Virus record (IMG/VR): IMGVR_UViG_2671180727_000010
Direction: 5' to 3' (one strand)
From: a virus
Lineage: Duplodnaviria; Heunggongvirae; Uroviricota; Caudoviricetes
DNA length: 38,652 nucleotides
Of this stretch, positions 1-38,652 are shown piece after piece. The notes under the pieces were generated by a model. The model was not told where the DNA came from and made no database searches. It saw only the letters and a list, made by a program, of their open reading frames with translations. The position numbers were made by a program, and so were the translations under genes. Within the stretch, counting starts at the first letter, position 1. Each line of letters opens with the position of its first letter.

Positions 1-98
1 CAGAAGCAGAAAAAGCTTATTATGCTTCCATCGGAAACGATGATCTGGCAGCCTGAGTTCACAGATAAAATACTCTCCAGGAAACCCGGGGCGGTTCA
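1..98 (+). mobile_element. Terminal 98 bp of an IS3-family insertion sequence (element body lies left of the window); + strand carries the last codons of its transposase
   Basis: 1-98 is the perfect reverse complement of 38517-38614; terminus reads ...GGGGCGGTTCA (IS3-family 5'-TG...CA-3' ends); + strand frame 1 reads ...QKQKKLIMLPSETMIWQPEFTDKILSRKPGAV; identity stops abruptly at 98/99. Resemblance to IS629/IS1203 ends is from memory only. Confidence 0.7.
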
Positions 99-2712
99 CA
101 GTCCCCTGGTTTGACATTACGCCCTTACCAGTTTTGGCCGCGTTATCTCTCTCGAACTCTGCCTGAGTCAGCTCCTGAGCAACGGCTTCCAAATGCTCCT
201 GATAACCACGAATACTGCCTTGCAGTTTCTGGATTTGCTCGGTATTGCCATCCTTTTTGGCTTTTTCAAGCTGATCATTAAGAGTCGCGATTTGCTTCTC
301 GGTCGCATTCTTACGAGAAGAAAGTGAATCAACCAGTTTTTGCGCAGGCTCCAGATAGCTTTTGTTTACCGTTTCACGTAACGGTGTCAATAGCTTGTTC
401 TTTTCGTCATCTGAAAGTGAACCGTCATCATTGATTTTCTGGATCTTATCCAGAGCCTCCTGCCGGGCTTTCACGAATGTTGCCGCGAAAATCTGGTTTT
501 CCGCTCGAATTTTCTCAATCTGAGATTCGGCAGCCTCTTTAGCCAAACGCTTTGCTACAGCGCCGTCACCAAGAGCTATCGTGCCGGTTATCTTTTGATA
601 CTCTTCCTGATTTTTTTTCAGGCGTGCTTCGATGTCAGCCTTCGACTCTTTGTGAGTAATAACACCGGCAGAGTTAGATACGTAATTAACACCCTCACCA
701 GTTTTTAATGCTCGTTGATCAGCAAGAATCTGCTTTTCGAGCTTTTCTGCGCGGTCGGCCATTTGTGCACGTTTGGCCGCTGTCATCGCTTCTGGTATTT
801 TCCTAATCTCGTCAACGACCTTTGAAGTTTCGCTGCGGAGCATGGTCATGTACGTGATTAGGCCAGCAACAGCTACAGTGGCAACTGTAAATGCTGCCCC
901 TATAGGGTTTGCTGCAATGAACGCCGTTAATCCAGCAAAAGCGCCTTTAAGCCCCGTAATCGCCCCACGGATGGCGAAAATAAGAGAGGGGATCGGAGCC
1001 AGCCCCATACGTGCCGCACGATTGAATCGAGTTACTGCTGTAGCGCCGAGGTTAAATGGAGTCTGTATGGCGGTCGCCATCGTGGCAAAGGTGCTAACCA
1101 TCTGGCTCCCAGCGCCAACTACCCCCATGATCCCTGCTCGCATCAGTTTGAACGCAACCATCGCGGCCACGACCTTACCGAGATTAATTACCAGCTCTTG
1201 GTTCTTTGCTAACCATTGAGCAAGCTGACGCAACCCATCGATTGCCGTCGTTAACCCCGAGCCTAAAGAATTGGCAAACGAAATCCCTTCGGCGCTATTC
1301 ATGATTGAAGCCAGTTCTTTCATCCCCTTCGATAGAGAATCCAGATATCCGGCCTGACCAACCCGATCAGCAAATAACGTGAATGACGTCTGAAGTTGCG
1401 CCAGCGCACCTGTGTAGGTTTGCATCATGTCTTTCGCTGCGTTCTCATTCTCCGCACGCAGACCAACAAACATCAGAGACAACGCCTGTTTTGCCTCAAC
1501 CGTACCGCTGGCAACGGCTTTAGTCAGTTCCCCCATAGTGATGCCTGCAGCGTCTGCCATTGCCTGCATCGCGTTAGGAACGGCTTCACCTAATTGCTGA
1601 CGTAGCTCTTCCATTGACACAACGCCCTTACCGGACATCTGCTGAACGGCCACAGCCGCACGTTTCAACAGCTCACTATCACCACCAAAACGAGCAACGG
1701 AGTCCACCAGCGCCTTCAGAGAACCATCGGTTGGATCTAAGCCAGCAGAACGAAACTTCACGAAGGAATCTGTTAACGCCTGCATCGCGAACGGCGCATT
1801 TTGCGCCATGTCTACGATGTACTTCATATCATCAGCGGCAGCCTGGCCCGGGTTGGACTTCTCCTTATTCAACCCTCGAAGCATCACCCGCATACGTTCC
1901 ATTTCGGCCGCAGCTTCAACAATAGGCTTCTGCCACCCAAACATGATGTCAGTAACCGTTCTGGCTGCATCTCCGATCTCGCCAAGCAGGAAAATGTTGC
2001 CACGAAGGCCAGAGAACATACCTCCTTCGTTACTTTTACCGCTATGGCCAGAAGCGCCGCTACGCCGCCCGCTACCACCATCGCCACTTCCAGATGTACG
2101 AACGCGTACCGGCTTGCTAATCAGTTGCTGACGTCCGATAACTTCGTCCATCTGCTCACGAACCTTTTTCAGTCCCTCGGCAGCCTGACTCGTTGTGACA
2201 CCCCAATTACTGAGTCGCTTCGTCGTGGTATTAAGGCGCGTATTCATGCCACTCACGGACGCAGAGGCTTCTTTGACCTCCGTACCAAAGCGGCTTGCGC
2301 TTTTGCTTGCATAGGTCGCCCAATCAGAGAAATCATTTAGCTCTGATTGCACTTTACGTAATGACGCGGTGAGTTTATCTACTGAAGAAGTTGTCGTATC
2401 GACGCGCTCAATCAGGGCTTTAAGACCAGAATTGAGGCTGGTGATGTTGCCACGCATTTTACGCGTAGCATCTGAAGCAAGCTCAAAACCGGCAGCTACA
2501 TCCTGTAGTTTATCTGCCGTAGAATCGAGCTTGCTTTCCAGAACGCCAATGATACGGGCGACCGAACCCAAAGAGCGTTCAAAGGTTTGGATTTTTTGAG
2601 CAGGCTTTGTTACCTGCTCACCAAATCGAGTAAGCAGTTTCCCCGCACGATCGATTGACGCTGTAAACTGTTTGTCTTCCAGCGACAGGATAAACTCTAC
2701 GTTTTGTGACAT
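99..2712 (-). CDS. Tail tape measure protein, N-terminal ~871 codons; 3' end interrupted by the IS insertion at 98/99
   Basis: ATG at 2712 (MSQNVEFILSLEDKQFTASIDRAGKLLTRFGEQ..., hand-translated); frame stays open to the window edge; long helical Ala/Gln/Lys-rich sequence with a hydrophobic central stretch; sits immediately downstream of the G/GT chaperone pair; protein character changes exactly at the IS junction. Confidence 0.65.
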
Positions 2713-2719
2713 TCCCTTG

Positions 2720-3106
2720 TCATCCTCTGCCAAATATTTGCATCAGTTGCTCTTTGGCGTCAGGGTCTGCCTTATCCTGGCTTGGATCGTAGACTTTATC
2801 TGTTACGACTGGTCTTCCAATCCTGAGTTGCAAACCCTCCATGAACGCCTTCACAGCCTCGCCATCCGCCTGGGACGCACGAGCGACTTGTAAGTTGCGG
2901 ACATCCTCTTCCGCACGCAGACGGTCTATATTGCGACTGAGCATCCAGAACATCGTGAGAGGAACGTTCAGTAGCTCTAATGGCGACACGGCGTAGTGAG
3001 CAACTACACGACTGAAATAGAATCCGAGATCTATTGAGACGGTCCTTGTCCCGGATTCATCGCGGGAAATTACTTTGCCCCTTCGCCAGCCGCTTTTTCG
3101 TTTTCT
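2720..3106 (-). CDS. Tail assembly chaperone frameshift extension (T part of a G/GT pair)
   Basis: Frame -1 relative to the G ORF is open from 3106 to the stop at 2720, overlapping the 3' end of G; an A-run (GAAAAAG, ~3093-3099) lies in the overlap; classic position between major tail and tape measure genes. Confidence 0.45.
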   Translation of the reverse strand, partial: RKRKSGWRRGKVISRDESGTRTVSIDLGFYFSRVVAHYAVSPLELLNVPLTMFWMLSRNIDRLRAEEDVRNLQVARASQADGEAVKAFMEGLQLRIGRPVVTDKVYDPSQDKADPDAKEQLMQIFGRG

Positions 3107-3387
3107 TCATCAATCACTTCCATAGCGAAGGTGAAGATCTGCTGGAGTTGCGGAACAGTCAGTTTTTCAAGAACTTCGTCAGGTACTGAAGGGATAACCT
3201 TACGAACCAGATCTGCATAAGCTGTCACTTGCTCAACAGGAGACATATTCATGAGATCTTTGCCTTCCATCTGCTTGATGGAAACGAACAGACCTACCGT
3301 CATTTCAACGATGGGATATTCCTGACCGCCAAATTTGATGCTTTTCTTCGGAGGCAGAATGGAATCTAGATCGAGTAATTTGGTCAT
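3070..3387 (-). CDS. Tail assembly chaperone (gpG-like)
   Basis: 105-aa ORF between major tail protein and tape measure genes, with an overlapping -1 frame ORF downstream. Confidence 0.5.
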   Translation of the reverse strand: MTKLLDLDSILPPKKSIKFGGQEYPIVEMTVGLFVSIKQMEGKDLMNMSPVEQVTAYADLVRKVIPSVPDEVLEKLTVPQLQQIFTFAMEVIDEENEKAAGEGAK

Positions 3388-3442
3388 TGGTTAAAATCCT
3401 TTTAAAAGAGAGGCCCATCCTGAGCCTCTGCTTAATTACTGA

Positions 3443-4189
3443 TTAATCTGCGGGGTTAATCGTTACTGACTTAGTTGCCTTCTTACCACCGCTATTGCTG
3501 GTGAAGGAGATATTTGTAGAACCCTGCGCCACACCACGTACCAGACCCGTTTGATCTACCGTGGCCTTTTCCTGGTCTTCGGATTCCCAAACACCGGTTT
3601 TGTCTGCGGCATCAGCTGGAGTGATTTCGGCTGTCAGTTGCACAGTTTCTCCAGCTTTTACGGTTGGAGATTCCGGTGAGATCGACACAGTTTTTACCGG
3701 TTTAGGACCGCTCATTTTGCCCAGAACGCCTTCATCATCCGGGTATGCGCTGAACTGAACAGAGAACACACGAACATCATCAGACTGGTAGGTCATAGTG
3801 AAGTTGCCCGCGGTTGCCGCTTTCGGGATGGTCAACACATAGTCGGTGGTGTCCTGCGGAGTCAGAACCAGCTCCTTCGCCACATCAATCAGGTTAACGC
3901 CCTGTGCAGATGTGATCGTGACAGAGTTGTCATCTTCGCTCAGAGTAGAACCAGGCATCAGGTCAACCATGTTTTGGAGTACAGACTCAGCCAGAGGCGC
4001 GGTGATGGTAATGTTGCGCCCCTGAACTAATTCGGAAATTACGGTCTGCCCCAACTGATCGACGGTGACTTTCAGCGTTTCAGTGGCTACTTCAACCTGA
4101 ACACCACCTTTGGTGTAACCCAAATCCACACCACCAAACGACACCTTACAGGCACCAAGTTTGATGTTTTTTACATGGGTATTAGACAT
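3443..4189 (-). CDS. Major tail (tube) protein with C-terminal Ig-like (Big_2-type) domain
   Basis: ATG at 4189 preceded by AAGGAG (track ORF extends to 4225 via upstream starts); C-terminal sequence ...VKAGETVQLTAEITPADAADKTGVWESEDQEKATVDQTGLV... is typical of Big_2 domains; position upstream of G/GT. Confidence 0.65.
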   Translation of the reverse strand: MSNTHVKNIKLGACKVSFGGVDLGYTKGGVQVEVATETLKVTVDQLGQTVISELVQGRNITITAPLAESVLQNMVDLMPGSTLSEDDNSVTITSAQGVNLIDVAKELVLTPQDTTDYVLTIPKAATAGNFTMTYQSDDVRVFSVQFSAYPDDEGVLGKMSGPKPVKTVSISPESPTVKAGETVQLTAEITPADAADKTGVWESEDQEKATVDQTGLVRGVAQGSTNISFTSNSGGKKATKSVTINPAD

Positions 4190-4238
4190 TGATGGAAAAC
4201 TCCTTTTTCCGTTAATTCTACGCATTCATTGCGCTAAT

Positions 4239-4254
4239 AGTAAGTATATACTTA
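4239..4254. promoter_or_regulatory. 16-bp perfect palindrome GTAAGTATATACTTAC upstream of the major tail gene (putative operator)
   Basis: Perfect dyad; same palindrome with a different centre at 24056-24071. Confidence 0.45.
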
Positions 4255-4263
4255 CCAATTGAG

Positions 4264-4647
4264 TTAATTCAATAAATAGCCAGCAAATTCAACAGGAATG
4301 CCTGCTTCTATTAATGCCCCATCATTTTTGGGATAAATGATTGGCATCGCCATCGGTCGTACAAGTCGAAAATAAACACCACCAGATTCCGTTTCCTCTA
4401 CTGGAAACATCTCAATGATTTTATGGGCTTTCTCAACCGTCGTAGTAATTGACGAACCACGCACAATGATTGTGAATGATTCGTGATAAAAGCCCTGTAG
4501 CTCATGATCGATGCTGATGCCGGTATTTGGGTTAATAAGCAGGACGCCAGATTTCACATTGGCAGGCAAGTAGTGACAGAAAATGTCAGTCCCGACCGTG
4601 CCAATCTTTGCCTTCTGCATCAAACTTGCAAACGCTTCAATAAACAC
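4264..4647 (-). CDS. Phage neck / tail-terminator-like protein (function uncertain)
   Basis: Track ORF 4264..4770; likely start is GTG at 4647 preceded by GAGAGG, overlapping the stop of the upstream gene; synteny between head and tail genes. Confidence 0.4.
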   Translation of the reverse strand: MFIEAFASLMQKAKIGTVGTDIFCHYLPANVKSGVLLINPNTGISIDHELQGFYHESFTIIVRGSSITTTVEKAHKIIEMFPVEETESGGVYFRLVRPMAMPIIYPKNDGALIEAGIPVEFAGYLLN

Positions 4648-4648
4648 A

Positions 4649-5122
4649 TTAACCTCTCGTAAATCCGGCTTTTCTGGCAGCCTCAAGAATCGCTTCTGAG
4701 AACTGCTTCTCGCTAATTTCCACCGCTCTTTCCAGAAAGTGTGGCCCAACACGGGGTTTAACACCGGCAATTGGTGGGTTTGTCACGTTCTTCATTCGAG
4801 AAAGATAACCGAGTCGGTATTTACCCAGCTCCATGTACTTAGCATAGTCACCTACTTCTACGCCCGGATGCCCCTGACGTGGTTTTGCTCCAGACACAGA
4901 AAGCTCAATACGCAGCCCTGAATAACCTTCTTTAATCACCCTGGCAAAGATGGCTGTCTCCAGAGATCCGGTTTCCAGCGGGGCCATTGCACGGCTGAGA
5001 CGCTCAACCAAACGCGCCAGCTTTTCCATGTCCCGGATAAGATATCGCTTAAATGCTTTCTGGCTGTTGTTGAGTCGATTCCCCGCACGTTTGAACTGAT
5101 GCGCATCGTATTTCAGACCCAT
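4649..5122 (-). CDS. Phage head-tail joining protein (putative)
   Basis: 157-aa ORF, coupled to neighbours, in the neck region of the late operon. Confidence 0.4.
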   Translation of the reverse strand: MGLKYDAHQFKRAGNRLNNSQKAFKRYLIRDMEKLARLVERLSRAMAPLETGSLETAIFARVIKEGYSGLRIELSVSGAKPRQGHPGVEVGDYAKYMELGKYRLGYLSRMKNVTNPPIAGVKPRVGPHFLERAVEISEKQFSEAILEAARKAGFTRG

Positions 5123-5457
5123 ATATTCGCCCCTACTTCAAGATGCCCAGGTCTTCCTCGTAGCCCCCAGCGGCGATGAACACTGGACACCTTTAATTTT
5201 TGACCTTCAAGGATCAGCACATCATCAAGTTGTACAGCCGCTTCTAAAGGGACAACTAACACAGCATCAAACAGCTCCAGACTCGCCTTACCACGACTAC
5301 CAGAGCTATCAGCACGAACTGACGATTTCTCATTACTCTGTTCGAACTTAACCACGCCGACATTCGTCTTCCTGACGAATTGTAATTGCGCCTCGCCGTA
5401 AACGTTCTTTGCGCCAAAGCGGTAGATCGCAATTTCTGTTTGCCACGAAATATTCAT
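5113..5457 (-). CDS. Phage head-tail connector / completion protein (putative)
   Basis: Track ORF 5113..5553; ATG at 5457 preceded by a GAGAGAGAG Shine-Dalgarno stretch is the likely start (MNISWQTEIAIYRFG...). Confidence 0.4.
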   Translation of the reverse strand: MNISWQTEIAIYRFGAKNVYGEAQLQFVRKTNVGVVKFEQSNEKSSVRADSSGSRGKASLELFDAVLVVPLEAAVQLDDVLILEGQKLKVSSVHRRWGLRGRPGHLEVGANIWV

Positions 5458-5536
5458 GCTCTCTCTCTGTTGTTGTCGGTCGCTCTCATTACTGGCCAAA
5501 AACCCTTTCGACCAAAAGTAAATAATGCGACTGGCG

Positions 5537-6370
5537 TTACGCACGGCGAACAATCATACGGTTGTTGATGTAACTGACCAGCAAGCGCCAGGTACTGCGA
5601 GCCACATGCACGTTTGCAGCTTTACCGGTACGGTACATGTTGGTTGTTTCACCGATTGACTCTGACAAAATGCCATCCTCTCGTGCTGCGGCAACATCAT
5701 TGCCATTTGCGATCTCACACGCTTCGTTGACAACGGCAAGCATCAACGCTTCTTTGAAGTAGTCAGGGAACTCTTCAAACTTCTCCTGCGTCATCTTTTC
5801 CCAATCGACTAAATCATGCCGGTACGCTCCATCTGCTCCCCACGGAATGTCATACACATTCAGCATATTTTGAGGGCGATCGTATCGGTCAAAGTCGATA
5901 CGTAGAATTTTGCGGATTGAGAACGGTAAAGTTTTAATTCGTCTGGTAGCCTCAATGAGACGCTTGCGCATTAAGCCTTCACCATCCGACAGCAAAGTGT
6001 CCCCATTCAGCATATCGATCGCTTGCATTTGAGCATCAGCGACAGTTGCAAACGACTGTTCTGGTATCGACAGTTCAAAACTATTCAGCAGAACATACAT
6101 TTGCCGCTCTTCATGCGTCAGACCCGATGCAACAGCCTTCACAATGACGTACCGCAGATCGCGTTCTTTCTCAGAGAGCTGGTTATATTCAGCCGACACG
6201 ACAACCGGAATCGACATTTGACCGCTGGTAATTTCTAGCGGCTCGCCATCAACGAGAATAGCCCCGGTGCTGTCCTTTACTGTGTAGGTAGCAGATTCGA
6301 TATCCAGCACGTTGAAGGCAAATGAAAGGGAAACAGCTTCACCGCTACGATACGAGTCGATCTGCGCCAT
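5537..6370 (-). CDS. Phage structural protein, unknown function (277 aa)
   Basis: ORF in the late operon between the decoration-like and neck genes; no recognisable motif. Confidence 0.45.
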   Translation of the reverse strand: MAQIDSYRSGEAVSLSFAFNVLDIESATYTVKDSTGAILVDGEPLEITSGQMSIPVVVSAEYNQLSEKERDLRYVIVKAVASGLTHEERQMYVLLNSFELSIPEQSFATVADAQMQAIDMLNGDTLLSDGEGLMRKRLIEATRRIKTLPFSIRKILRIDFDRYDRPQNMLNVYDIPWGADGAYRHDLVDWEKMTQEKFEEFPDYFKEALMLAVVNEACEIANGNDVAAAREDGILSESIGETTNMYRTGKAANVHVARSTWRLLVSYINNRMIVRRA

Positions 6371-27753: not shown

Positions 27754-27819
27754 GAAACAATTTGTTTTCTTATGTGGCTTATTATCTCAATTAACAAAAG
27801 GCAGAAAACAAATTGTTTT
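27754..27819. promoter_or_regulatory. Two AAAACAA-N-TTGTTTT operator palindromes
   Basis: ~27754-27768 (GAAACAAtTTGTTTT) and ~27805-27819 (AAAACAAaTTGTTTT, perfect 7-1-7 dyad); -10-like GATAAT between them on the minus strand. Confidence 0.5.
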
Positions 27820-27857
27820 AGGGTATGCGTAAATCAGAAGGGATTGTGTCTATATGA

Positions 27858-27902: not shown

Positions 27903-29936
27903 TTACTTAACCTGGTGGCCTGGTTTAGCACCAGCATCCGGGCTTAACAGGAAGATATCTTTCCCGCCGGGGCCAGCAGCCATCACCATGCCTTCGGAGA
28001 TACCGAAGCGCATTTTACGTGGTGCCAGGTTAGCCACCATAATGGTGTGACGACCAATCAGTGCCTGTGGATCTGGATAAGCGGAACGGATGCCTGAGAA
28101 GACATTACGCTTTTCACCACCGAGATCCAGCGTCAGACGAAGCAGTTTGTCAGAACCTTCTACAAACTCTGCGTTTTCAATCAGCGCCACGCGCAGGTCA
28201 ACTTTGGCGAAGTCGTCAAAGGTGATAGTTTCCTGAATCGGGTCGTCAGCCAGTGGGCCAGTTACCGGTGCGGCTGTGGCTTTCACTTCTTCTTTGGATG
28301 CTTCCACCAGTGCTTCAACCTGCTTCATATCGATGCGGTTATACAGTGCCTTGAACGGATTCACTTTATGGCCCAGCAGCGGTTGCTGGATACCATCCCA
28401 GGTCAGTTCTGTATTCAGGAATGCTTCTGCACGTTCAGTCAGTTTCGGCAGTACCGGCTTCAGGTACGTCATCAGCACGCGGAACAGGTTAATGCCCATA
28501 GAGCAAATCGCCTGCAGATCGGCATCGCGTCCTTCCTGCTTCGCCACCACCCACGGAGCCTGTTCATCGACATAGCGGTTAGCCAGGTCAGCCAATGCCA
28601 TGATTTCACGGATAGCTTTACCAAATTCGCGGCTTTCCCATGCTTCGCCAATCACTTCAGCGGCATCAGTAAAGGTTTTGTACAGTTGCGGGTCAGCCAG
28701 TTCGCTTGCCAGCACGCCGTCAAAACGCTTGTTGATAAAGCCTGCATTACGGGAGGCCAGGTTAACCACTTTGTTCACGATATCGGCATTCACGCGCTGA
28801 ACGAAATCCTCCAGGTTGAGATCGATATCATCAATGCGCGAAGAGAGTTTCGCAGTGTAGTAGTAACGCAGGCTGTCGGCGTCAAAATGATTCAGCCAGG
28901 TGCTGGCTTTAATAAAGGTGCCGCGAGACTTGGACATCTTCGCGCCGTTCACCGTCACATAGCCGTGAACAAACAGGTTGGTCGGCTTGCGGAAGTTGCT
29001 GCCTTCCAGCATGGCAGGCCAGAACAGGCTGTGGAAGTAAACAATATCTTTACCGATGAAGTGGTACAGCTCGGCGGTGGAGTCTTTCTTCCAGTATTCA
29101 TCGAAGCTGGTGGTATCGCCGCGCTTGTCGCACAGATTCTTGAAGGAACCCATGTAGCCAATCGGCGCGTCCAGCCAGACGTAGAAATATTTGCCCGGCG
29201 CGTTCGGAATTTCAAAACCGAAGTAAGGCGCATCTCGGGAGATATCCCACTGTTGCAGGCCGGATTCAAACCATTCCTGCATTTTGTTCGCCACCTGCTC
29301 CTGCAACGCGCCGCTGCGGGTCCATGCCTGCAACATTTCGCTGAAAGAAGGCAGATCAAAGAAGAAGTGTTCGGAATCACGCATTACCGGGGTAGCGCCA
29401 GAAACCACCGATTTCGGCTCGATCAATTCAGTCGGGCTATATGTTGCGCCGCAGACTTCACAGTTATCGCCGTATTGATCTGGCGCTTTACATTTCGGGC
29501 AGGTGCCTTTTACAAAACGATCCGGCAGGAACATGCCTTTTTCCGGGTCGTACAACTGAGAGATAGTGCGGTTTTTAATAAAACCGTTCTCTTTCAGGCG
29601 AGTATAGATAAGCTCAGACAACTGACGGTTCTCTTCGCTGTGCGTCGAGTGATAGTTGTCATAGCTGATGTTAAAGCCTGCGAAATCAGTCTGGTGTTCC
29701 TGACTCATTTCGCCAATCATCTTCTCCGGTGTGATACCAAGCTGCTGTGCTTTCAGCATGATCGGCGTACCGTGGGCATCGTCGGCACAGATGAAATTAA
29801 CCTCGTGGCCGCGCATTCGCTGGTAACGAACCCAGACATCAGCCTGGATGTGCTCCAGCATATGGCCGAGGTGGATTGAGCCGTTAGCGTACGGCAGCGC
29901 GCACGTCACCAGAATTTTCTTCGCGACTTGGGTCAT
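27903..29936 (-). CDS. metG: Methionine--tRNA ligase
   Basis: 677 aa from [28 protein letters not shown] (HIGH motif) with KMSKS; matches my recollection of Escherichia MetG almost throughout; the track ORF starts 43 codons upstream at an out-of-context ATG. Confidence 0.97.
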
Positions 29937-30093
29937 AGTAGGCATTACTTCTTTGTAGTGAAAAGGGGCTTGATAGTAACAAAATGGCCTTATGTCTGCC
30001 ATGTGATAACAGCATTTCTCATAAATGATTAAATGTCGTAGCTGGAGTACACTACAAGGCGACAATTGCGCAAATTAAAATAAAGGAGACGGG

Positions 30094-31194
30094 ATGAGCG
30101 AGTCCAAATCGCCGGATGCCCTGAGAGCAATGGTAGCCGGTACGCTGGCTAATTTTCAGCACCCAACCCTGAAACACAACCTGACTACGCTTAAAGCGTT
30201 ACACCATGTTGCGTTGATGGATGACACACTGCATGTCGAACTAATCATGCCTTTCGTGTGGAATAAGCCTTTTGAAGACCTGAAAGAGCAATGTAGTGGT
30301 GATCTGCTCCGTATCACTGGCGCAAAGGCTATTGACTGGAAGCTGTCGTACAACATTGCCACGCTTAAGCGCGTCAAAAACCAACCAGGCATTAATGGCG
30401 TTAAGAACATTATCGCCGTCAGCTCAGGCAAGGGCGGCGTGGGTAAATCCTCCACGGCGGTAAACCTGGCACTGGCGTTGGCTGCTGAAGGTGCGAAAGT
30501 TGGTATTTTGGATGCCGATATCTATGGTCCATCAATTCCAACCATGCTGGGCGCGGAAAACCAACGTCCAACCTCACCTGACGGTACTCACATGGCACCT
30601 ATCATGTCTCATGGCCTGGCAACCAACTCTATTGGTTATCTGGTCACCGACGACAATGCAATGGTGTGGCGTGGACCGATGGCCAGCAAGGCGCTGATGC
30701 AGATGTTGCAGGAAACTCTATGGCCTGATCTGGACTATCTCGTTCTCGATATGCCGCCGGGCACTGGTGATATTCAGTTGACGCTGGCGCAGAACATTCC
30801 TGTAACTGGTGCGGTTGTGGTAACTACGCCGCAAGACATCGCGCTGATCGATGCGAAGAAAGGCATTGTGATGTTCGAAAAAGTCGAAGTGCCGGTACTG
30901 GGTATCGTCGAAAACATGAGTGTGCATATTTGCAGTAACTGCGGTCATCACGAGCCAATTTTTGGCACCGGTGGCGCACAGAAACTGGCCGAGAAATACA
31001 ACACGCAGTTGTTAGGCCAAATGCCACTTCATATCTCTCTTCGTGAAGATCTGGATAACGGAACACCAACCGTTATTAGTCGTCCAGATAGCGAATTTAC
31101 GGCTATTTATCGTGACCTCGCAGATCGCGTTGCCGCCCAAATGTATTGGCAAGGTGAAGTAATACCTGGCGAAATCGCATTCCGCGCAGTGTGA
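30094..31194 (+). CDS. apbC: Fe-S cluster carrier ATPase ApbC/Mrp
   Basis: P-loop SGKGGVGKSSTAVNLA; CxxC motif (CSNCGHH); divergent from metG as in Escherichia; the true start may differ from the track start by a few codons. Confidence 0.93.
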   Translation: MSESKSPDALRAMVAGTLANFQHPTLKHNLTTLKALHHVALMDDTLHVELIMPFVWNKPFEDLKEQCSGDLLRITGAKAIDWKLSYNIATLKRVKNQPGINGVKNIIAVSSGKGGVGKSSTAVNLALALAAEGAKVGILDADIYGPSIPTMLGAENQRPTSPDGTHMAPIMSHGLATNSIGYLVTDDNAMVWRGPMASKALMQMLQETLWPDLDYLVLDMPPGTGDIQLTLAQNIPVTGAVVVTTPQDIALIDAKKGIVMFEKVEVPVLGIVENMSVHICSNCGHHEPIFGTGGAQKLAEKYNTQLLGQMPLHISLREDLDNGTPTVISRPDSEFTAIYRDLADRVAAQMYWQGEVIPGEIAFRAV

Positions 31195-31231: not shown

Positions 31232-31621
31232 CTACATCACGGGACAATCATCAAACTCGCCACTTCTTGCGTCGTTGATAATGTGAGTGATCACACCAAA
31301 CACGGCATTGCTGCCCGTGCATCCATCGTCATCCTTTGGCAATGCTTCCTTCTTACCGGTTCTTAAATCCTCCAGATGCTGACGTGGGTACTTCCGGTAT
31401 CTTTTTACGCGATATTCCCCATCCAGAGCGCATACAAGCAGAGAACCATCAACCGGGGTAAGTGAGGAATCGACCACCAGCAATGCACCCTGTAATATTC
31501 CCTCACGATGATGACTATCAGCTGCCCTCATGAAGTAGGTCGCTGAAGGATGTCTAATTATCTGCTGATCAAGAGAAATACGGCTCTCAGCATAATCCGC
31601 CGCAGGAGAAGGGAAGCCCAT
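31232..31621 (-). CDS. UmuD'-like S24 peptidase-fold protein, genetically pre-truncated (begins at the residue equivalent to the UmuD cleavage product)
   Basis: MGFPSPAADYAESRISLDQQIIRHPSATYF... aligns with UmuD from its Cys24-Gly25 cleavage site onward (my recollection of UmuD); the GDSM Ser motif is replaced by ADSHH; RBS AAGAGG; LexA box immediately upstream; no umuC-like gene adjacent. Confidence 0.75.
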   Translation of the reverse strand: MGFPSPAADYAESRISLDQQIIRHPSATYFMRAADSHHREGILQGALLVVDSSLTPVDGSLLVCALDGEYRVKRYRKYPRQHLEDLRTGKKEALPKDDDGCTGSNAVFGVITHIINDARSGEFDDCPVM

Positions 31622-31985: not shown

Positions 31986-32017
31986 AAGGAAACAGAGTTT
32001 GCGGCTCTGTTCCTGAG

Positions 32018-32209: not shown

Positions 32210-32283
32210 ACAGATATTGCAACTGCAAAGGCAAGCCCAAAGGTATTTGCAGCTAGGCGCGATAAAACTAAGTGAGGCCTGTT

Positions 32284-32367: not shown

Positions 32368-32380
32368 CGCTAGTTGCTAC

Positions 32381-32405
32381 AGGCCCCATCAAGAGCATGG
32401 GGCCT
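32381..32405 (+). terminator. Hairpin after the small ORF
   Basis: AGGCCCCAT-caagagc-ATGGGGCCT followed by CTTTATCG (weak U-tract). Confidence 0.45.
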
Positions 32406-32422
32406 CTTTATCGTACTATTGC

Positions 32423-33049
32423 TTATTTTTTACGGACTGAGTTGTTCACTGCTCTGGCAATTTTCTCCCGCAATTGCTGCGTTCCGTGGTACTGAACCGC
32501 AATATCCCGCAACTCGTTCACCAGTTCTCTAATCTGGTGATCTTTAAGCTCATTATTTGGGTGATGGGCAACAACTCTGGTTAATTCACCCTTGTCTTTT
32601 GCTCTTACGTATGCAGCTCTTGTGCATTCGACCCATGTATTACCGCCTACATTAACTTCGTAGATTAGGCTGGACTTATCTGTCAATTCGGAACAAATAC
32701 GGGCCGTGGTCTGGCAACTAGAGCATTCGCAGTTATCGCGGAAACCGTGATCTACCGGTCGAGAAAGAGGTTTAACTTTTTCATCCAACTTCATCACAGC
32801 ATCGTGATAAGCGTTCCAGCCGTCATCTTTACCAAGTTGATAAATCTCTGAAGGCTCCATGTAGTCTATATCGCAACCTTCTTCATCCGATCTATCTGGT
32901 CGCTTCCCTGGTAATCGCTCATAAAAACGATTTCTGTCTCGACGTTCGGCTCTCAGTGCTAACGCAAGAAGTTGCTCAAGCGAGGTATTTGCACCAGCAA
33001 TAATTTCATTGAGAATATCTTCTGTGAGATCTTTCGCTACCGTGCTCAT
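32423..33049 (-). CDS. Hypothetical phage early-region protein (208 aa)
   Basis: ORF with stop/start overlap to the upstream gene; part of a co-directional coupled gene array. Confidence 0.55.
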   Translation of the reverse strand: MSTVAKDLTEDILNEIIAGANTSLEQLLALALRAERRDRNRFYERLPGKRPDRSDEEGCDIDYMEPSEIYQLGKDDGWNAYHDAVMKLDEKVKPLSRPVDHGFRDNCECSSCQTTARICSELTDKSSLIYEVNVGGNTWVECTRAAYVRAKDKGELTRVVAHHPNNELKDHQIRELVNELRDIAVQYHGTQQLREKIARAVNNSVRKK

Positions 33050-33429
33050 TTATCTCTCTCAGTATGTTGCGATGGCGTAAATTTGACGACATCAAATATT
33101 TTGGATGGCATCAACTTTATCCGCGAGCTTAGTTCGACTCTTCTCTGTAATGCGGTTAATAATGTTTTCGTTCTGACGCCTTCGTGTATCCTCATCCCTG
33201 GCACAAGAACTACATCGCAGGGGAGATGCTCAGGTGACAAATCATTTTGGGCATCGCTAATCAGTCGTGTAATCTCTCTTTCAAGCCGACCGCCTAGCTC
33301 TGTTTTAGTGCAATGTTCTGACCAATCGCCAGCCTCAAGCAGCGCGAGAATGCTTAAAATATCGTCCAATAGATCAGTGGTATTATCGACTTCCTTCTGA
33401 AACTCACCGGCTACTGATTTATGCATCAT
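33046..33429 (-). CDS. Hypothetical phage early-region protein (127 aa)
   Basis: Four-base overlaps with both neighbours. Confidence 0.5.
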   Translation of the reverse strand: MMHKSVAGEFQKEVDNTTDLLDDILSILALLEAGDWSEHCTKTELGGRLEREITRLISDAQNDLSPEHLPCDVVLVPGMRIHEGVRTKTLLTALQRRVELSSRIKLMPSKIFDVVKFTPSQHTERDK

Positions 33430-34079
33430 TCGTCATCCTCATCCGAGTCATCCTCATTACAGGATGAGAGTAGTGGGTTAGTCATTCGCCCTACTTGAGT
33501 GGCGTAGCCACGCCGACAGAGATTGCGCAGCACACTGTATATTTCGAACATCTCGGTTCGTTCATCGCCAACATCAAGCTCAGATGCTATAGCGTGGCAT
33601 TCAGTCGCGAGAGCCGATATTTTCTGAAATAACTCTGCATTATTCACTGTTCGACTCCTGCGGCGTTCTGGTAGTGGCATCCAGTGTGTGACATTGCTAA
33701 TCAGACCATATTCATTAGTTTGAGGATGGTTGCCGTTATCGTCTCCGTATTTAAGACTCTCCATAAAGCCATAATGCCTATCACCATTAACACTCACAAA
33801 GCCATAATAAGCAGGTATAACGCCGATCTCACACGTAACCAGTAAAGGAAAACTAGTTCTCCAATTTAGCTCGCCAATTACAGGCATTCGCTCACTACAG
33901 CTTATCCAACCATCCTTAGATGCGGCTGTATTGGCATAGGCCTTACGGTGCTTCTGTAGCTCTGCTGCAATCGCTCTCACGACTTCAACTGGTGCCCTTG
34001 CAGCAAACTCAATGTTGGTGATCAGCTCATTAAGATATTTCTCGCTTGGGTAGCATTTCTTATTGTTAACGGTGGTCAT
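33426..34079 (-). CDS. DUF551-like phage protein
   Basis: Contains THWMPLPE, which I recall as the hallmark of the DUF551 family; acidic C-terminal tail; unverified. Confidence 0.45.
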   Translation of the reverse strand: MTTVNNKKCYPSEKYLNELITNIEFAARAPVEVVRAIAAELQKHRKAYANTAASKDGWISCSERMPVIGELNWRTSFPLLVTCEIGVIPAYYGFVSVNGDRHYGFMESLKYGDDNGNHPQTNEYGLISNVTHWMPLPERRRSRTVNNAELFQKISALATECHAIASELDVGDERTEMFEIYSVLRNLCRRGYATQVGRMTNPLLSSCNEDDSDEDDE

Positions 34080-34264
34080 TAGGCAGCTCTCTCAACAACA
34101 AGCAATTCGTCGTAGTCATAATCAGTTTCGGAACCATCCGTACCGAACAGAGTCACTTTGTCATTTTCCATCCAAAAAGATTTAACCGCACATTGTTGAC
34201 CTTTAGATGTTATGAGCACATCACCAGGGATTACGTCTTCAGCGCGAACCTCTAGTGTTCTCAT
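34079..34264 (-). CDS. Small hypothetical protein (61 aa)
   Basis: Coupled ORF. Confidence 0.4.
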   Translation of the reverse strand: MRTLEVRAEDVIPGDVLITSKGQQCAVKSFWMENDKVTLFGTDGSETDYDYDELLVVERAA

Positions 34265-34791
34265 CGTGCTGCCCCCTCTTTGGTGAAAATGCCTGCTGCA
34301 ATGCTGTTTATGATGCTGTCAGTGCATGGAGTAGAAAGCTGGGCATCTCCAGCAATTTTCATGACCTCAACATCCGCATATCGAATACCGAGGTGTATCA
34401 GACCGGCTATACCTGACTTAAGTCGAACATTTTCCATAAACAGATCTTTTTCCCGCTGTTTAGCGGCTTCCAACTCCATCGACAATTTTTCCAACTGCTC
34501 TTTATGCTTCTTGTATTCCTGATACGCGTGCCAAGACTGACCTTTGCGCACACTATCAGCGATATCAGCAACCTGCTCTGGTGTTAGCGTGGTCAGTGGC
34601 TGTGATGGAAAAATCATCACTTGCCCGGCATCCCAATCAAAACCCGCCTGAATTGACTGAACCTCAACTGATGGTGTTGAACCGATGCGACCAGGCGAAT
34701 GAACAACGATCGTTACATCCATATCGCGACGATGGCTGTGGTTGTTGGACAAAATACGATTCACCAACTCAGAAAATTTGGATAATTTCAT
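34261..34791 (-). CDS. Hypothetical phage early protein (176 aa)
   Basis: ATG at 34791 overlaps the upstream stop as ATGA ([14 protein letters not shown]...); the track ORF extends to 34920 through the upstream gene. Confidence 0.5.
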
Positions 34792-35111
34792 GCTGATCTC
34801 TCTTTCTCTCCCCGGATAATTCTGTTGCACACATCCACACACTCGTCGCAGATGAAAACGGCGTCCCCAGCAATTAACTTTTTGACGGCGTACTGGGATT
34901 TGTTGCAGAAGCTGCAACAAAGTGTTCGCCTGACTGATAAGGATGGAGCGCCAGATGTCAGCCGCTCCATATCGTTCTTGCGACGCAATATCACACGGCT
35001 GAACTCAACCAGTTTCTCCGGGGATATCTCCTCCTCCGTAGCGAGCGTCTCTAGTCGTTCGAGTATGTTGAAGGCTTTTTCTTGGGTAATAGCAGAGTGC
35101 GATGTGGTCAT
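34788..35111 (-). CDS. Phage protein with a C-terminal ClpX-type C4 zinc-binding domain
   Basis: [34 protein letters not shown] closely matches the ClpX N-terminal zinc-binding domain as I recall it ([34 protein letters not shown]). Confidence 0.65.
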
Positions 35112-35509
35112 TTTCTTTCACCTTCAATGTTCGTGGCGCTGGCAAGATTGTCCTTGCGAAGAAGAGCGGCTATGCGCTTACTTCCATCCGAGATAACGCC
35201 CTCGTAATACTCACGCTGCTCGTTGAGTTTTGATTTTGCCAACTCCAGTTGTTTTGTTAGTTCCGCAATACGGCAAACATCGTTGATACGCGTTTCCTCT
35301 AATGCGTTGATCTCATCCAGTAGTGCCAGCACGGTTTCTGGTCCGGCCAGAAATTTGAAGGCGTTGAGGGCATCAATATCAACACCGCTATCTTTAAGTT
35401 CCTGTTCGCATATCAGATCATCATCAACTGGCAACATTAACAGGCGTTCCATTGCCGGAATTGCACGCTCTGCCGCCTCACGCAGTGCCTGATAGTCAAT
35501 CTTGCTCAC
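35108..35509 (-). CDS. Hypothetical phage early protein (133 aa), ea22-type context
   Basis: Coupled ORF; helical, charged. Confidence 0.45.
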
Positions 35510-36006
35510 TGGATGACTCCTTTACGAAGCTGTTCAGCAATACTTACGCATATCTCTGCGCCTCTAATCAGCCCCGGAACGTTCTTGTTTGGCCCAACTT
35601 CACCATCAACAAAATCAATCATCGCGTTACGAGCCATATCCACGCCCTGCGCACGTACTTCAGCCAGAAAAGCATCGGTGGCTGGAGTCTCCGTTAATTC
35701 GCTAACCCAATTATCTCCGTGTTCCTCGGCACACATCGCATCGAATGCTCGCTCAGATTCTTTCAGGGCTGCATTCTCCGCCGCTAATGCGTCTCTCTGC
35801 GCCCGCAACTTCTCAATTTCAGCAGCCATGTAGTAACCAACCATAGCGAAGACGGCAAAAGAGTTGTCTGCCTCATCAGGCGACACTGAGGCCATTAGCA
35901 GGCCATCGTAAAAATCGTGACTCCCATTGGTGATCGCCACCGCATAGGAGTCGTGGTTCTCGCGCTTGTGAATGAGAACTACGGGATTTTCGATTTTGTT
36001 ACTCAT
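35506..36006 (-). CDS. Hypothetical phage early protein (166 aa) with a central coiled-coil
   Basis: EIEKLRAQRDALAAENAALKESERAFDAM segment; own promoter region with operator-like motif at ~36075-36095. Confidence 0.45.
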   Translation of the reverse strand: MSNKIENPVVLIHKRENHDSYAVAITNGSHDFYDGLLMASVSPDEADNSFAVFAMVGYYMAAEIEKLRAQRDALAAENAALKESERAFDAMCAEEHGDNWVSELTETPATDAFLAEVRAQGVDMARNAMIDFVDGEVGPNKNVPGLIRGAEICVSIAEQLRKGVIQ

Positions 36007-36144
36007 GTGTTTTTCTCTTCTTTGCTGTTACATAAGCACTACCAAGTGCTGGTTTATTTTCACAAATAAGAAAATGTAGAAAACAATTTATTTAAGGCCA
36101 TAAGTTATGGCCTTTATTTATTCATGCAGAAGGATTTGTAGCGT

Positions 36145-36525
36145 CTAATTGCCGGATAAAATGGGGTGAGGTGCTTGCCAGTAGGCTCCACCGGTCCATG
36201 TGAACCCCATGCGAATAAGAGTGTTTATTGCGGCTTTGGTAGACTCCGATTCGACACTGGCTTTTCGAAACTCTTGAACCTCTTTCGCCAACTTGTATGT
36301 AATTGTGCAGGGGACGATTGCAGCCCAGCCTTTCTCATGACTGTTAATGACCATCTGGATGTGACCATCCAGAATAGGTTGATTAGGCATGTTATTGAAA
36401 ATGTCTGCCTGTTTTTGAATGTGAAGAAAAAGCCTTGCCAGCTCCATTTGCTCACTACGAGACAAGGGATTATCAAGAGGGCTTTTTGCAAAAGCGGCTA
36501 CACGCTGTGCGTCAATGCCAAACAT
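36145..36525 (-). CDS. Hypothetical protein (126 aa)
   Basis: Coupled to the upstream gene (shared stop/start at 36525). Confidence 0.45.
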   Translation of the reverse strand: MFGIDAQRVAAFAKSPLDNPLSRSEQMELARLFLHIQKQADIFNNMPNQPILDGHIQMVINSHEKGWAAIVPCTITYKLAKEVQEFRKASVESESTKAAINTLIRMGFTWTGGAYWQAPHPILSGN

Positions 36526-37229
36526 CAGCGCACCTCACCATCTTTATGGCTGGAGTTAACTTCCGTCATTAAATGTCTGACGTAATCGACAAGAGAGCCG
36601 CCTGGTGGAATCTGGCATTCCTCAACTAACTGGAAGTAGATATCCGCTGCATTACGTGTATTGCTACCCGCGCATATTCTTTCTTCCCGAAGTGCATGAA
36701 GCTCGTTGATCAAACGGTCACACTCTCCGTTACGCTGATCCACAACGGCCTCAAGCTCTGCGACGCGTTCACCTGGCGTCTTACCTTCTTTGCGTTGGAT
36801 GGTAACGACGAAATCGCCAATTGCAGGGACGTTGTAATCCAGCTCAAGGTAGTTTTTGGCACCGCTGCGGACGAACTCACCCGCGAACATGGTGGCGAAC
36901 ATCGCAGAGGCCACTTCGCCGTTGAAAAGTGACTCCAGATCTAACGGAGTCCCGGCAGCAAGAGCCTCTTTTGCTGTATCCATTGCATCCATGAACCGAT
37001 CAAACTCACTAGCGCGCTTTTCCAGGTCTTTCCATTGCTCGCTCCAACGTTTGGCAACGAAGTCTATGAATGTTTTCGCGGATTCATCAAAATCCCCCTC
37101 AAACTTAACGATGCCTTTATCAATAATGATCTGGCCTACCGCATCCTCTGCATAACCTTTCAATGTAAACTTGAAAGGAAAATCAGAATGGCCTGTGACG
37201 TTAAAATGCTCTAACTGGAGGTTGTTCAT
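36525..37229 (-). CDS. Hypothetical protein (234 aa)
   Basis: ORF with promoter region 37230-37290 containing a GTAAATACTTAC dyad. Confidence 0.5.
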   Translation of the reverse strand: MNNLQLEHFNVTGHSDFPFKFTLKGYAEDAVGQIIIDKGIVKFEGDFDESAKTFIDFVAKRWSEQWKDLEKRASEFDRFMDAMDTAKEALAAGTPLDLESLFNGEVASAMFATMFAGEFVRSGAKNYLELDYNVPAIGDFVVTIQRKEGKTPGERVAELEAVVDQRNGECDRLINELHALREERICAGSNTRNAADIYFQLVEECQIPPGGSLVDYVRHLMTEVNSSHKDGEVR

Positions 37230-37290
37230 GTGTTTTTCTCTTATCGTTTAGTTATTACATTCTTACACAAATTAAGTAAGTATTTACCTA

Positions 37291-38508
37291 TCATTTAACG
37301 CGTTTGAAAACGTATACGCTGACTGTGATCCCTGTGTCTTCAAACTCGTTGGTAAACGACTTCCCTCTGGCATAAACGTAATTATCCATCGTCATCCAGT
37401 CCAGTATTGGCGCAGTGCCCGGCAATACTGCTACAAGACGCCCGCCGACTTTCAGATGCCCCAGCGCAGCCAGCGTGTGCTCTCTATGACGACCAAGCGA
37501 GTACGGCGGGTTCATAACGATTTTGTCGAACTGATAACCTGCGTTGTCCTCAGACCACTTTATGAAGTCGCAGCAAATCGTGTTCGTATACCCTTTTCCA
37601 CGCAGGATATCAGCGAAGAGAGGTGCGATTTCTATGCAGGTAACATCTTCCAGATCGGCGTTAATATAGGCCAGAAGATCCCCACGTCCGGCTTGAGGCT
37701 CCAGCAGCTTCTCACCAGGCTTCAATTCAGTGGCTCTGGCAACGTACTCAGCAATCAAGCGTGGGGTAGGGTAGAACTGGTGTGATTTTGTATCCGGTAT
37801 TAAACCGGTAGCCACAATCGTATTTAGCGTATGGCCGATGTCATACGGGAACTGCCAGTGCTTTTTCTCCTGCACGCCGCCAATGAAGCTCAGTGTGCGC
37901 TCAAGCTCTTCCACCTGCGACTTCTGGAGAGCTGAATCAGAGAAGTACCATACGCCTTTGTCTTTGCTCAATCGCCCGTCACGAAGCGCAGTGCGAACCG
38001 GCACGGAGATCGTCTTCTGGATTAACCCGAACTGCTTTGGTGCCCGTGTTTTTGGCGCGGTGCGACATGGCGCGGGGATTGCAGCAGGCATACTGTAAGC
38101 CAGCACCTCATTCAACTTCCAGGCCACGTCAGGATGTATTTCAAAGTGAACGTTGCCGTTCTTGAACATCTTCACGCGCATCAGATTTCCATCGACGTTC
38201 ATCCAGTCACCGGTCTGGCAGTCGTTTGCTCGATACGCAGCTGATAGCACCTCAGCAGTGCGGTTGATGGTAATAAATTCTTTGTGCGCGAAGAAATGAA
38301 GCAAGACACGCAGATCGTCGATGTAGTCCTCTTTGCGATAGTTCACGCTAACGCTGTCCCGCCAGAAATCAGAAATGCAGTCAGCGATTATCAGACGCTC
38401 GCTGAAACCGTTTGTCTTATTTGTCTTGTGCGCAGGACTCAGCGCCTTAAACAAGCCATACACGCGCTCAGAGAGATATTTGTGCCTGTCATTCAGCAAA
38501 TTAAGCAT
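37291..38508 (-). CDS. N6-adenine DNA methyltransferase (orphan) with ~200-aa N-terminal extension
   Basis: AdoMet motif LLEPQAGRGDLL and catalytic MNPPYS (motif IV) in the C-terminal half; ATG at 38508 lies only 8 bp from the IS end. Confidence 0.7.
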   Translation of the reverse strand: MLNLLNDRHKYLSERVYGLFKALSPAHKTNKTNGFSERLIIADCISDFWRDSVSVNYRKEDYIDDLRVLLHFFAHKEFITINRTAEVLSAAYRANDCQTGDWMNVDGNLMRVKMFKNGNVHFEIHPDVAWKLNEVLAYSMPAAIPAPCRTAPKTRAPKQFGLIQKTISVPVRTALRDGRLSKDKGVWYFSDSALQKSQVEELERTLSFIGGVQEKKHWQFPYDIGHTLNTIVATGLIPDTKSHQFYPTPRLIAEYVARATELKPGEKLLEPQAGRGDLLAYINADLEDVTCIEIAPLFADILRGKGYTNTICCDFIKWSEDNAGYQFDKIVMNPPYSLGRHREHTLAALGHLKVGGRLVAVLPGTAPILDWMTMDNYVYARGKSFTNEFEDTGITVSVYVFKRVK

Positions 38509-38516
38509 CGTGGGTA

Positions 38517-38652
38517 TGAACCGCCCCGGGTTTCCTGGAGAGTATTTTATCTGTGAACTCAGGCTGCCAGATCATCGTTTCCGATGGAAGCATAATAAGC
38601 TTTTTCTGCTTCTGCCGGAGGAGTATGGCCCAGCCTTTCCAGCAATCGTCGA
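38517..38652 (-). mobile_element. End of a second copy of the same IS3-family element (body lies right of the window), inverted relative to the left copy
   Basis: 38517-38614 is the reverse complement of 1-98; the IS sequence continues to the window edge; the minus strand carries the transposase C-terminus with a stop at 38501-38503 created in flanking DNA. Confidence 0.7.

Follow-up and report, generated by a model that had tools for sequence, protein, structure and literature searches.

The DNA stretch of 38,652 nucleotides analyzed here over its whole length (the window) is very probably a fragment of a phage-plasmid of ~100-110 kb that received two independent insertions of an IS629/IS1203-group element, the contig having broken inside both copies. 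One copy interrupts the tail tape-measure gene and the other a gene for a DUF4942/methylase protein. Sequence comparison establishes the identity of the insertion sequence (IS), both junctions to the base, the truncation of both genes and the colinearity of the segment between them. Both insertions are of an ordinary, strain-specific sort, and the phage-plasmid is a known and common one.

The window edges

The whole window corresponds to contig CYAB01000032.1 of the E. coli draft assembly GCA_001283145.1, and its edges are contig breaks inside a repeat rather than biological ends. A previous reading of this DNA, made from the sequence only, had described bases 1-98 as the perfect reverse complement of 38517-38614. 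In a direct comparison 98/98 positions were indeed identical, and the match collapses one base beyond the repeat on both sides. A repeat search of the full window returned no other inverted repeat of 30 nt or more, and a perfect match of this length (98 nt) cannot be a product of chance. The IS sequence was also said to run on to the right edge, and all 136 bp of 38517-38652 proved to be IS. The IS stretches at the two contig ends are unequal (98 vs 136 bp).

The sequence-only reading further held that both edges carry the same IS end in inverted orientation, and that these repeats explain why the contig stands alone. Both edges turned out to be the right inverted repeat (IRR) end, and the window is the complete contig. 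The contig should be regarded as a repeat-bounded fragment of a known phage-plasmid and not as a stand-alone element.

Identity of the insertion sequence

The left copy is represented by its last 98 bp (1-98, plus strand). These comprise the C-terminal codons of OrfB (...EAEKAYYASIGNDDLAA*) and, up to base 98, the right inverted repeat with its terminal ...GGTTCA. They agree without a difference with a full 1,310-bp copy (L005, 2501-3810) at its IRR end. The remainder of the left copy lies beyond the contig. The right copy is present with its last 136 bp (38517-38652, minus strand) in the opposite orientation, and its IRR begins TGAACCGCCCCGGGTTTCC at 38517. Its OrfB C-terminus is encoded on the minus strand and points toward the truncated methylase gene. 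In the inward direction the OrfB of both copies ends in ...AEKAYYASIGNDDLAA*; these last residues, the only ones of OrfB encoded in the window, are identical to those of the full copy.

Elements of the IS3 family measure ~1.2-1.55 kb, and a programmed -1 frameshift connects their orfA to orfB. Their transposase is of the DDE type, with an HTH at the N-terminus and an integrase core (rve) domain, and they generate a target-site duplication of 3-4 bp. The full copy, 100% identical over the 136 bp, is 1,310 bp long, has TGAACCGCCCCGGG... inverted repeats and is flanked by a 3-bp target duplication. Its PGAP annotation includes a 'programmed frameshift' and an AL1L pseudoknot feature. The IS length and the orfA/orfB frameshift are read from this copy, as the window holds only 98 + 136 bp. 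Its OrfA matches HTH_Tnp_1 (6e-13) and its OrfB matches HTH_21 and rve (5e-28). The IRR in the window reads TGAACCGCCCCGGGTTTCCTGGAGAG at 38517, with its reverse complement ending at 98, and the left inverted repeat (IRL) of the full copy reads TGAACCGCCCCGGGAATCCTGGAGAC. The inverted repeats of the element can be written as TGAACCGCCCCGGG(AA/TT)TCCTGGAGA; they are imperfect and have the 5'-TG...CA-3' ends that are a feature of the IS3 family. The TG...CA termini noted earlier are confirmed, and the transposase C-terminus noted in both copies is the end of OrfB.

The 136-bp right IS end matches copies in 4,068 of 5,426 complete E. coli genomes (~75%), many of them at 100%, and the IS copies in E. 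coli that match it at 100% number in the thousands. It is ~95% identical to copies labelled IS1203 by PGAP; the copies that it matches at 100% bear no label more specific than 'IS3 family transposase'. The earlier assignment to the IS3 family is borne out, and both window-edge elements belong to the IS629/IS1203 group, an assignment made at group level. For IS629, target duplications of 3-4 bp, subtypes 4-5% apart and, in E. coli O157:H7, a location of most copies in prophages have been described (PMC3271280).

The left insertion in the tape-measure gene

The 5' part of the tail tape-measure gene lies at 99-2712 on the minus strand (ATG at 2712; codons 1-871 of 1,517). The ORF runs 871 codons from this ATG to base 99 and stays open across the 98 IS bases; its predicted read-on into the IS adds 53 more codons. 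A break after about 871 codons with chance read-through into the IS had been proposed from the sequence only, and the break was placed here after codon 871 of 1,517. Over codons 1-871 the product differs at only 1-2 amino acids from the intact 1,517-aa proteins that plasmids L006 and L010-L014 encode. In the relatives the gene is annotated as 'tape measure protein' and is located upstream of minor tail protein L. The intact homologue contains TMP_3 (4e-27) and Tape_meas_lam_C (6e-13). The truncated tape measure keeps the TMP_3 region and loses ~647 C-terminal codons, including the Tape_meas_lam_C domain. Loss of the C-terminal 43% of the tape measure should block tail assembly, and the phage-plasmid in this strain is probably defective as a phage.

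At 99-101 the trinucleotide CAG is the predicted target-site duplication of the left insertion; in the intact reference the sequence around this point is ...CCCAAGAA|CAGTCCCC. These 3 bp are a prediction, as no sequence from beyond the left copy was found. The assumed length is based on the 3 bp observed in the full copy and at the right insertion, and on the 3-4 bp given in PMC3271280. We infer that the left copy, too, is a simple insertion, which would give the far-side junction ...CCTAACCCAAGAACAG|TGAACCGCCCCGGGAATCC... (tape-measure 3' part, CAG duplication and IRL). A search for the tape-measure C-terminal fragment as a separate protein returned 53 fragments, and none of those inspected by sequence or screened by length starts at the junction. 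The exact look-up of eight predicted C-terminal fragments (4 haplotypes x 2 start codons), in which ~630 residues must all match, gave none, and ten fragment clusters that were inspected contained no CTT-series member of 615-640 aa. The outcome of these fragment searches is uninformative, because they needed an exact match of ~630 residues or a separate cluster representative. The left junction had 0 matches in IMG/VR.

The right insertion in the DUF4942/methylase gene

The 3' part of the DUF4942/N6-adenine-methylase-like gene (~codons 155-561 of 561) occupies 37291-38516 (minus strand). At the right end the longest ORF of this strand encodes 405 aa and opens at ATG 38508, 8 bp from the IS end. 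It corresponds to residues 157-561 of the intact protein (99% identity), so that ATG 38508 is the codon of an internal Met157. In every intact relative the gene is one continuous ORF of 561 codons. Because the intact gene has 561 codons and the 405-aa ORF covers residues 157-561, the right IS copy is placed inside the gene, after codon 154, and the 154 N-terminal codons are removed. The earlier description of an IS lying 8 bp from the methyltransferase start is therefore correct in its distance to ATG 38508, and mistaken in taking this internal codon for the gene start. For the same reason the copy does not replace the region upstream of the gene, as had been suggested; it lies within the gene.

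DUF4942 (PF13708) is detected in the intact protein at residues 140-295 (1.7e-20) and is cut in the window ORF, where it starts from profile position 53. The Pfam N6_Mtase match has E = 0.004 and 17 bits, under the cut-off of 20.4 bits. The protein shows an NPPY motif (VMNPPYS, kept in the window ORF) and a glycine-rich LEPQAGRGD stretch. Its depositors named it 'DNA modification methylase', the methylase activity being putative. A hybrid outward promoter at the IS/methylase junction was considered and rejected, as no sigma-70-like site is found there.

A target-site duplication GTA was assigned to 38514-38516 from the window side and from the predicted far-side product. To predict the reciprocal N-terminal fragment, the insertion was taken to be simple, with 3 bp duplicated and translation running on into the IS left end. 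The predicted product, ...ETVI-LNRPGNPGD* with 163 aa, exists exactly as CTT32472.1 (E. coli, 17.7-kb contig). It demands TAC (gene strand) directly before the IS left end. Reciprocal fragments with a 4-bp duplication or from other haplotypes were not present in the protein collection. The 3-4 bp duplication that had been proposed as a check is thus found for the right copy, with GTA on the window side and a far-side fusion that needs the same 3 bp. For the right copy these sequences show a simple insertion in full: 3 bp are duplicated, and the IS left end stands on the far side. The ...PGNPGD* tail of CTT32472.1 implies IRL-specific sequence beyond the right copy. The accession number of CTT32472.1 is ~11,700 away from that of CTT20798.1 of the window, so this protein may belong to a clonal sister assembly within the project and not to the window's own assembly.

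The same fusion product bears on the possibility that one or both junctions are assembly artefacts, either because the contig ends are chimeric or because they stem from a minority subpopulation. Assembly is generally error-prone where a contig ends in a repeat, and the IS lengths at the two ends differ, but at the junctions IS and phage DNA have no more than 1-3 bases in common, far under any assembly k-mer, and the contig runs 98-136 bp into the IS with no stop at the branch point. For the right junction, moreover, the reciprocal product was predicted and then found independently, which argues that the junctions are no artefact. An artefactual 98-bp identity, named beforehand as a possible refutation, fails on this point, and an artefact at either junction is highly improbable.

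It is extremely improbable that 1-98 encodes the natural end of the tape measure and that ATG 38508 is the natural start of the methyltransferase. The left ORF is open across the IS, the longest right ORF starts 8 bp from it, and a recombination breakpoint falls at the Met157 codon in some relatives. All intact relatives, however, extend the tape measure by ~647-653 residues unrelated to the sequence encoded by 1-98, and their 561-codon DUF4942 gene is unbroken, which contradicts this view; the DUF4942 domain also spans the break point. The other refutation named beforehand, a tape measure that naturally ends with the 1-98 sequence in related phages, therefore fails as well. ATG 38508 as the true gene start, suggested by variant plasmids that break at Met157, was rejected for the present lineage on the continuous ORF and the domain.

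The phage-plasmid body

Between the two truncated genes the SSU5/pHCM2-like phage-plasmid body is uninterrupted (2713-37290), with ORF lengths that match those of annotated relatives. It contains tail and head genes, the major capsid, portal and large terminase genes, two ParB-like genes and a DEAD-box helicase, together with small accessory genes, MetRS, a ParA/MinD-like ATPase, an S24 peptidase and Ea22/Ead-like genes. Bases 99-38516 (38.4 kb) are colinear with intact SSU5/pHCM2-like phage-plasmids at ~97.5-99.6% identity, the partners being CP053388.1 (48369-86366), Shigella sonnei p38 and phage Cyrano. By megablast to CP053388.1 the left half has 100% coverage and 98.8% identity, and the right half 92% and 97.8%. 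For SSU5 itself the values are 66% coverage and 81.6% identity. Related complete records are circular, 95-120 kb in size and of type IncFIB or rep_cluster_488. The contig does not extend into the replication region, and circularity is that of the relatives.

Origin of the arrangement

In the proposed scenario, the E. coli strain would carry an SSU5/pHCM2-like phage-plasmid of ~100-110 kb. Two IS629/IS1203-group copies of 1,310 bp would have inserted independently and in opposite orientations, one in the tape-measure gene (codon 871 of 1,517) and one in the DUF4942/methylase gene (codon 154 of 561). The short-read assembler would then have failed on the multi-copy IS and left the 38.4 kb between the copies as a separate contig, ending 98 and 136 bp inside the IS right ends. 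Both copies are presumably on one plasmid molecule, and the element would persist as a plasmid that can no longer build tails.

The segment between the copies might also be inverted in all or some cells by IS recombination, an unlikely addition to two independent insertions rather than a replacement for them. Two identical inverted IS ends flank the segment, and homologous recombination between inverted repeats leads to inversion. It leaves all four IS/flank junctions unchanged, though, and contigs broken in the IS look alike in both isomers; because of these identical junctions the data weigh neither for nor against it. The sequence-only reading had regarded the inverted copies as open to deletion as well, but recombination between inverted copies yields inversion instead.

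Segments bracketed by inverted IS copies have the architecture of a composite transposon, and neither IS junction was found in the complete E. coli genomes, plasmids or phage records searched. Both points would fit an IS-38 kb-IS remnant or composite-transposon-like unit in another replicon or in the chromosome, the rest of the phage-plasmid being lost. Beyond the right copy, however, the interrupted gene continues with its missing 5' part and the matching 3 bp, as is left by a simple insertion into an intact plasmid, and an IS3-family composite transposon of 38 kb would be unusual. A single duplication around the whole unit, as for a composite transposon, is not what was observed: since the right copy has its own duplication and the other gene half beyond it, it was inserted individually and not moved as part of a unit. 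Such a relocated unit is very improbable, and two independent insertions are preferred.

Building on these two insertions, a more speculative and very improbable picture is that of an element without tails that exists as a plasmid only and whose 38-kb segment of structural and partition genes is able to flip, and in which read-through from the IS transposase gene might express a shortened methylase (residues 157-561). Such expression is conceivable because the transposase gene of the right copy points the same way as the 5'-truncated methylase gene. If true, the methylase would be freed from its DUF4942 N-terminal part. In other plasmids a natural module boundary coincides with the Met157 codon.

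For annotation, the tape-measure and "methyltransferase" ORFs are to be treated as IS-disrupted pseudogene fragments. The contig is a further example of IS629-type elements degrading phage-derived DNA, and its significance lies mainly in correct annotation.

Comparison with known systems

The same gene order is observed across the 38.4 kb in the SSU5/pHCM2-like phage-plasmids (Escherichia phages CMS-2020a and Cyrano; Shigella sonnei p38). Shared with this group are the structural module, the ParB-like genes, the helicase, MetRS, the ParA-like ATPase and the DUF4942 methylase (PMC7969092, PMC8085198). In contrast to these relatives, the tape-measure and DUF4942 genes are interrupted by an IS here, and in no other record searched.

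The window also resembles prophages and phage-plasmids 'grounded' by an IS. When an IS interrupts an essential virion gene, the element should become defective while it can still be inherited (PMC3271280; PMC6379469); here the loss of function is predicted from the truncation. Compared with the IS629/IS1203/IS3411 isoform group, the copies, taken together with the 100%-matching full copy, have the same repeats, TG...CA ends, DDE (rve) transposase and 3-bp duplication, and no difference in kind is seen. Landing in phage-derived DNA is likewise typical of that group (PMC3271280).

Identity of the element at the window edges

Positions 1-98 and the reverse complement of 38517-38614 are identical at 98/98 bases, and the identity collapses one base beyond the repeat on both sides. 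In a repeat scan, no other inverted repeat of 30 nt or longer appeared anywhere in the window. A perfect match of 98 nt cannot have arisen by chance. The right copy runs 38 bases past the repeat, up to the window edge. At both edges the right terminal inverted repeat (IRR) is found together with the final codons of the transposase frame OrfB (...AEKAYYASIGNDDLAA, then stop), which point into the window (+ strand at the left edge, - strand at the right edge). With a right end at each edge, there must be two distinct IS copies, oriented oppositely. The sequence-only reading had described the edges as the same IS end in a perfect inverted repeat, with the IS continuing to the right edge, and this description holds.

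Of 5,426 complete E. coli genomes, 4,068 contain IS copies that match the 136-bp stretch at the right edge (median 3 places per genome, maximum 49), annotated as 'IS3 family transposase' or 'IS3-like element IS1203 family transposase'. One full copy, 100% identical across the 136 bp, measures 1,310 bp; its left end is the repeat TGAACCGCCCCGGGAATCCTGGAGAC and its right end the repeat TGAACCGCCCCGGGTTTCCTGGAGAG. Terminal repeats of this sequence belong to IS629 and the isoforms IS1203 and IS3411. At its own site this copy is flanked by a 3-bp duplication (CTT). PGAP annotates it as a transposase with programmed frameshift, and Pfam places HTH_Tnp_1 in OrfA and HTH_21 plus rve in OrfB. Overall, every IS-family feature open to testing was found, and the earlier assignment to the IS3 family is supported. 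The isoforms IS629, IS1203 and IS3411 are 4-5% divergent and generate target duplications of 3-4 bp; in O157:H7, 62% of their copies are located in prophages (PMC3271280).

Origin of the contig and the phage-plasmid body

Only one record, CYAB01000032.1 (NCBI draft assembly GCA_001283145.1), contains the exact 405-aa protein encoded by the rightmost gene; the accession of the protein is CTT20798.1, 'DNA modification methylase [Escherichia coli]'. This contig measures 38,652 bp, as does the window. The window is thus the whole of the contig, and its edges are contig ends in a short-read draft. A stop inside a multi-copy IS is the expected outcome for such a draft, so that the IS copies do explain the stand-alone contig, as had been proposed. 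The IS stretches at the two ends are unequal (98 bp at 1-98, 136 bp at 38517-38652). Equal lengths would be expected from k-mer overlap alone; assembler or gap-filling behaviour is probably responsible.

Over positions 99-38516 the window is colinear with a 38-kb part of circular, intact SSU5/pHCM2-like phage-plasmids of 95-120 kb. Among them are Escherichia phage CMS-2020a (CP053388.1, 48369-86366; 98-99% identity), phage Cyrano, PhiR41_1 and Shigella sonnei plasmid p38, with Klebsiella relatives and SSU5 itself matching at greater distance. The ORFs for capsid, portal, terminase, ParB-like protein, helicase, methionyl-tRNA synthetase (MetRS), ParA-like protein and S24 peptidase equal those of annotated relatives in length. 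The 38-kb segment looks intact except for its two end genes.

Accessory region and other features of the body

Two families of dispersed intergenic repeats of 35-46 nt, whose shared core is nearly palindromic, for example GAAAACAA(A/C)TTGTTTTC, lie upstream of small minus-strand ORFs in the accessory region (22804-22880, 23534-23579, 24457-24491, 24941-24975, 26343-26377, 27781-27835 and 36056-36101). They may represent a repeated operator or promoter motif. Two pairs of GC-rich, terminator-like hairpins are also present, at 22472-22510/22943-22981 (85% identical) and 20704-20734/21200-21230 (90%), with members ~470-500 bp apart; the stretch between the first pair (22505-22943) has no match in p38. 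A full-length MetRS gene (27903-30065, - strand; 677 aa in relatives) adjoins a ParA/MinD-like ATPase gene (30094-31194), with an S24 LexA-like peptidase gene nearby (31232-31621). A tRNA scan detected no tRNA genes in the window. In the closely related p38, an accessory stretch absent from the window carries ISEcp1 and blaCTX-M-15 (38347-40740); the equivalent window position is ~33540.

Left junction: the tape-measure gene

In the intact reference, ...CCCAAGAA is directly followed by CAGTCCCC...; the window carries the IS end ...GGTTCA and then CAGTCCCC. The 5' part of the tape-measure gene (- strand, start ATG at 2712) comprises 871 codons before the IS, over which the protein differs from intact 1,517-aa homologues by 1-2 residues. 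The split of this ORF after about 871 codons, running into IS sequence, was thereby borne out; when the complete IS is taken into account, the fusion is predicted to run on for 53 codons to a stop. It was also considered whether the tail encoded by 1-98 is the natural tape-measure end. This was rejected, as the relatives continue for ~647-653 residues unrelated to it. The Tape_meas_lam_C domain is located in the missing stretch. Judged by what is generally known of tape-measure proteins, loss of 43% of the protein including this C-terminal domain should block tail assembly.

The look-up for the far-side C-terminal fragment gave no match and is uninformative, since it required exact identity over ~630 residues. 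A protein search with the C-terminal half returned only partial proteins of at most 1,140 aa and no ~1,517-aa representative; full-length proteins of that size exist in annotated plasmids, so negatives from this search do not signify absence.

Right junction: the DUF4942 methylase gene

At the right junction the reference reads ...GTGGGTA/TGACCG..., and the window ...GTGGGTA followed by TGAACCGCC.... In CMS-2020a, Cyrano and p38 the gene is a single continuous ORF of 561 codons, annotated as 'DUF4942 domain-containing protein' or 'DNA modification methylase'. The 405-aa ORF of the window aligns to residues 157-561 of the intact protein (402/405 identical), and the Pfam DUF4942 match, at residues 140-295 in the intact protein, is clipped. 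The right copy therefore lies inside the 561-codon gene, after codon 154. The sequence-only reading had the IS replace the upstream region of the methyltransferase gene; this must be corrected, as the ATG found 8 bp away from the IS encodes the internal Met157. The catalytic part is weakly recognisable (N6_Mtase under the cut-off, NPPY motif visible). Examination of the junction sequence revealed no promoter-like site created there. The transposase gene of the right copy is co-directional with the truncated methylase gene, which makes read-through possible.

A common plasmid variant (cluster of protein P0054, 222 member sequences) shows a breakpoint 8-9 nt from this insertion point (compare window 38506-38516). 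Its first ~156 DUF4942 codons end in ...IPTMA and a stop, and homology to the intact gene ceases just past the Met157 ATG. In the three Logan contigs inspected (L007, 4001-7598; L008; L009) the next genes, on the opposite strand, form a type I restriction-modification module with a 1,038-aa hsdR-like gene and an hsdS-like gene.

Simple insertion of the right copy

A simple insertion with a 3-bp duplication predicts a far-side 5' fragment of codons 1-154, C+TG and the IS left end, encoding ...ETVI-LNRPGNPGD and a stop (163 aa in total). Of the two repeats, only the left one encodes the N of PGNPG (the right repeat would give F); without a duplication the product would read ...ETVMNRPG..., and one of 4 bp would put the fragment out of frame. 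An exact look-up retrieved the predicted protein as CTT32472.1, 'DNA modification methylase [Escherichia coli]', carried on one contig of 17,658 bp, and six alternative versions were absent from the same exact-sequence look-up. This exact match strongly supports a complete, simple insertion of the right copy, with GTA as its duplication, and a plasmid that extends past it. A composite transposon, in which the IS-bounded segment moved as a unit, is disfavoured because the right copy carries its own duplication. Had recombination between the inverted copies flipped the segment, all four junctions would be the same as now, and the event would be invisible here.

The accessions CTT32472.1 and CTT20798.1 lie ~11,700 apart, and the former may derive from a clonal sister assembly of the same project. 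An origin of both in one assembly is the simpler reading, as each product has only one accession.

Probable origin: two insertions in a resident phage-plasmid

Both junctions were absent from IMG/VR, from 72,556 PLSDB plasmids, from 50,697 phage records and from all 5,426 E. coli genomes that are complete; the insertions are therefore strain-specific. In the best-supported account, an IS629-group element inserted twice, independently and by copy-out/paste-in, into a resident phage-plasmid, inactivating the tape-measure and DUF4942 methylase genes, and the assembler then broke the phage-plasmid at the IS repeats. Every component is of a known kind, and the event is of an ordinary, already known type, in a phage-plasmid family (SSU5/pHCM2-like) that is already well described (PMC7969092; PMC8085198).
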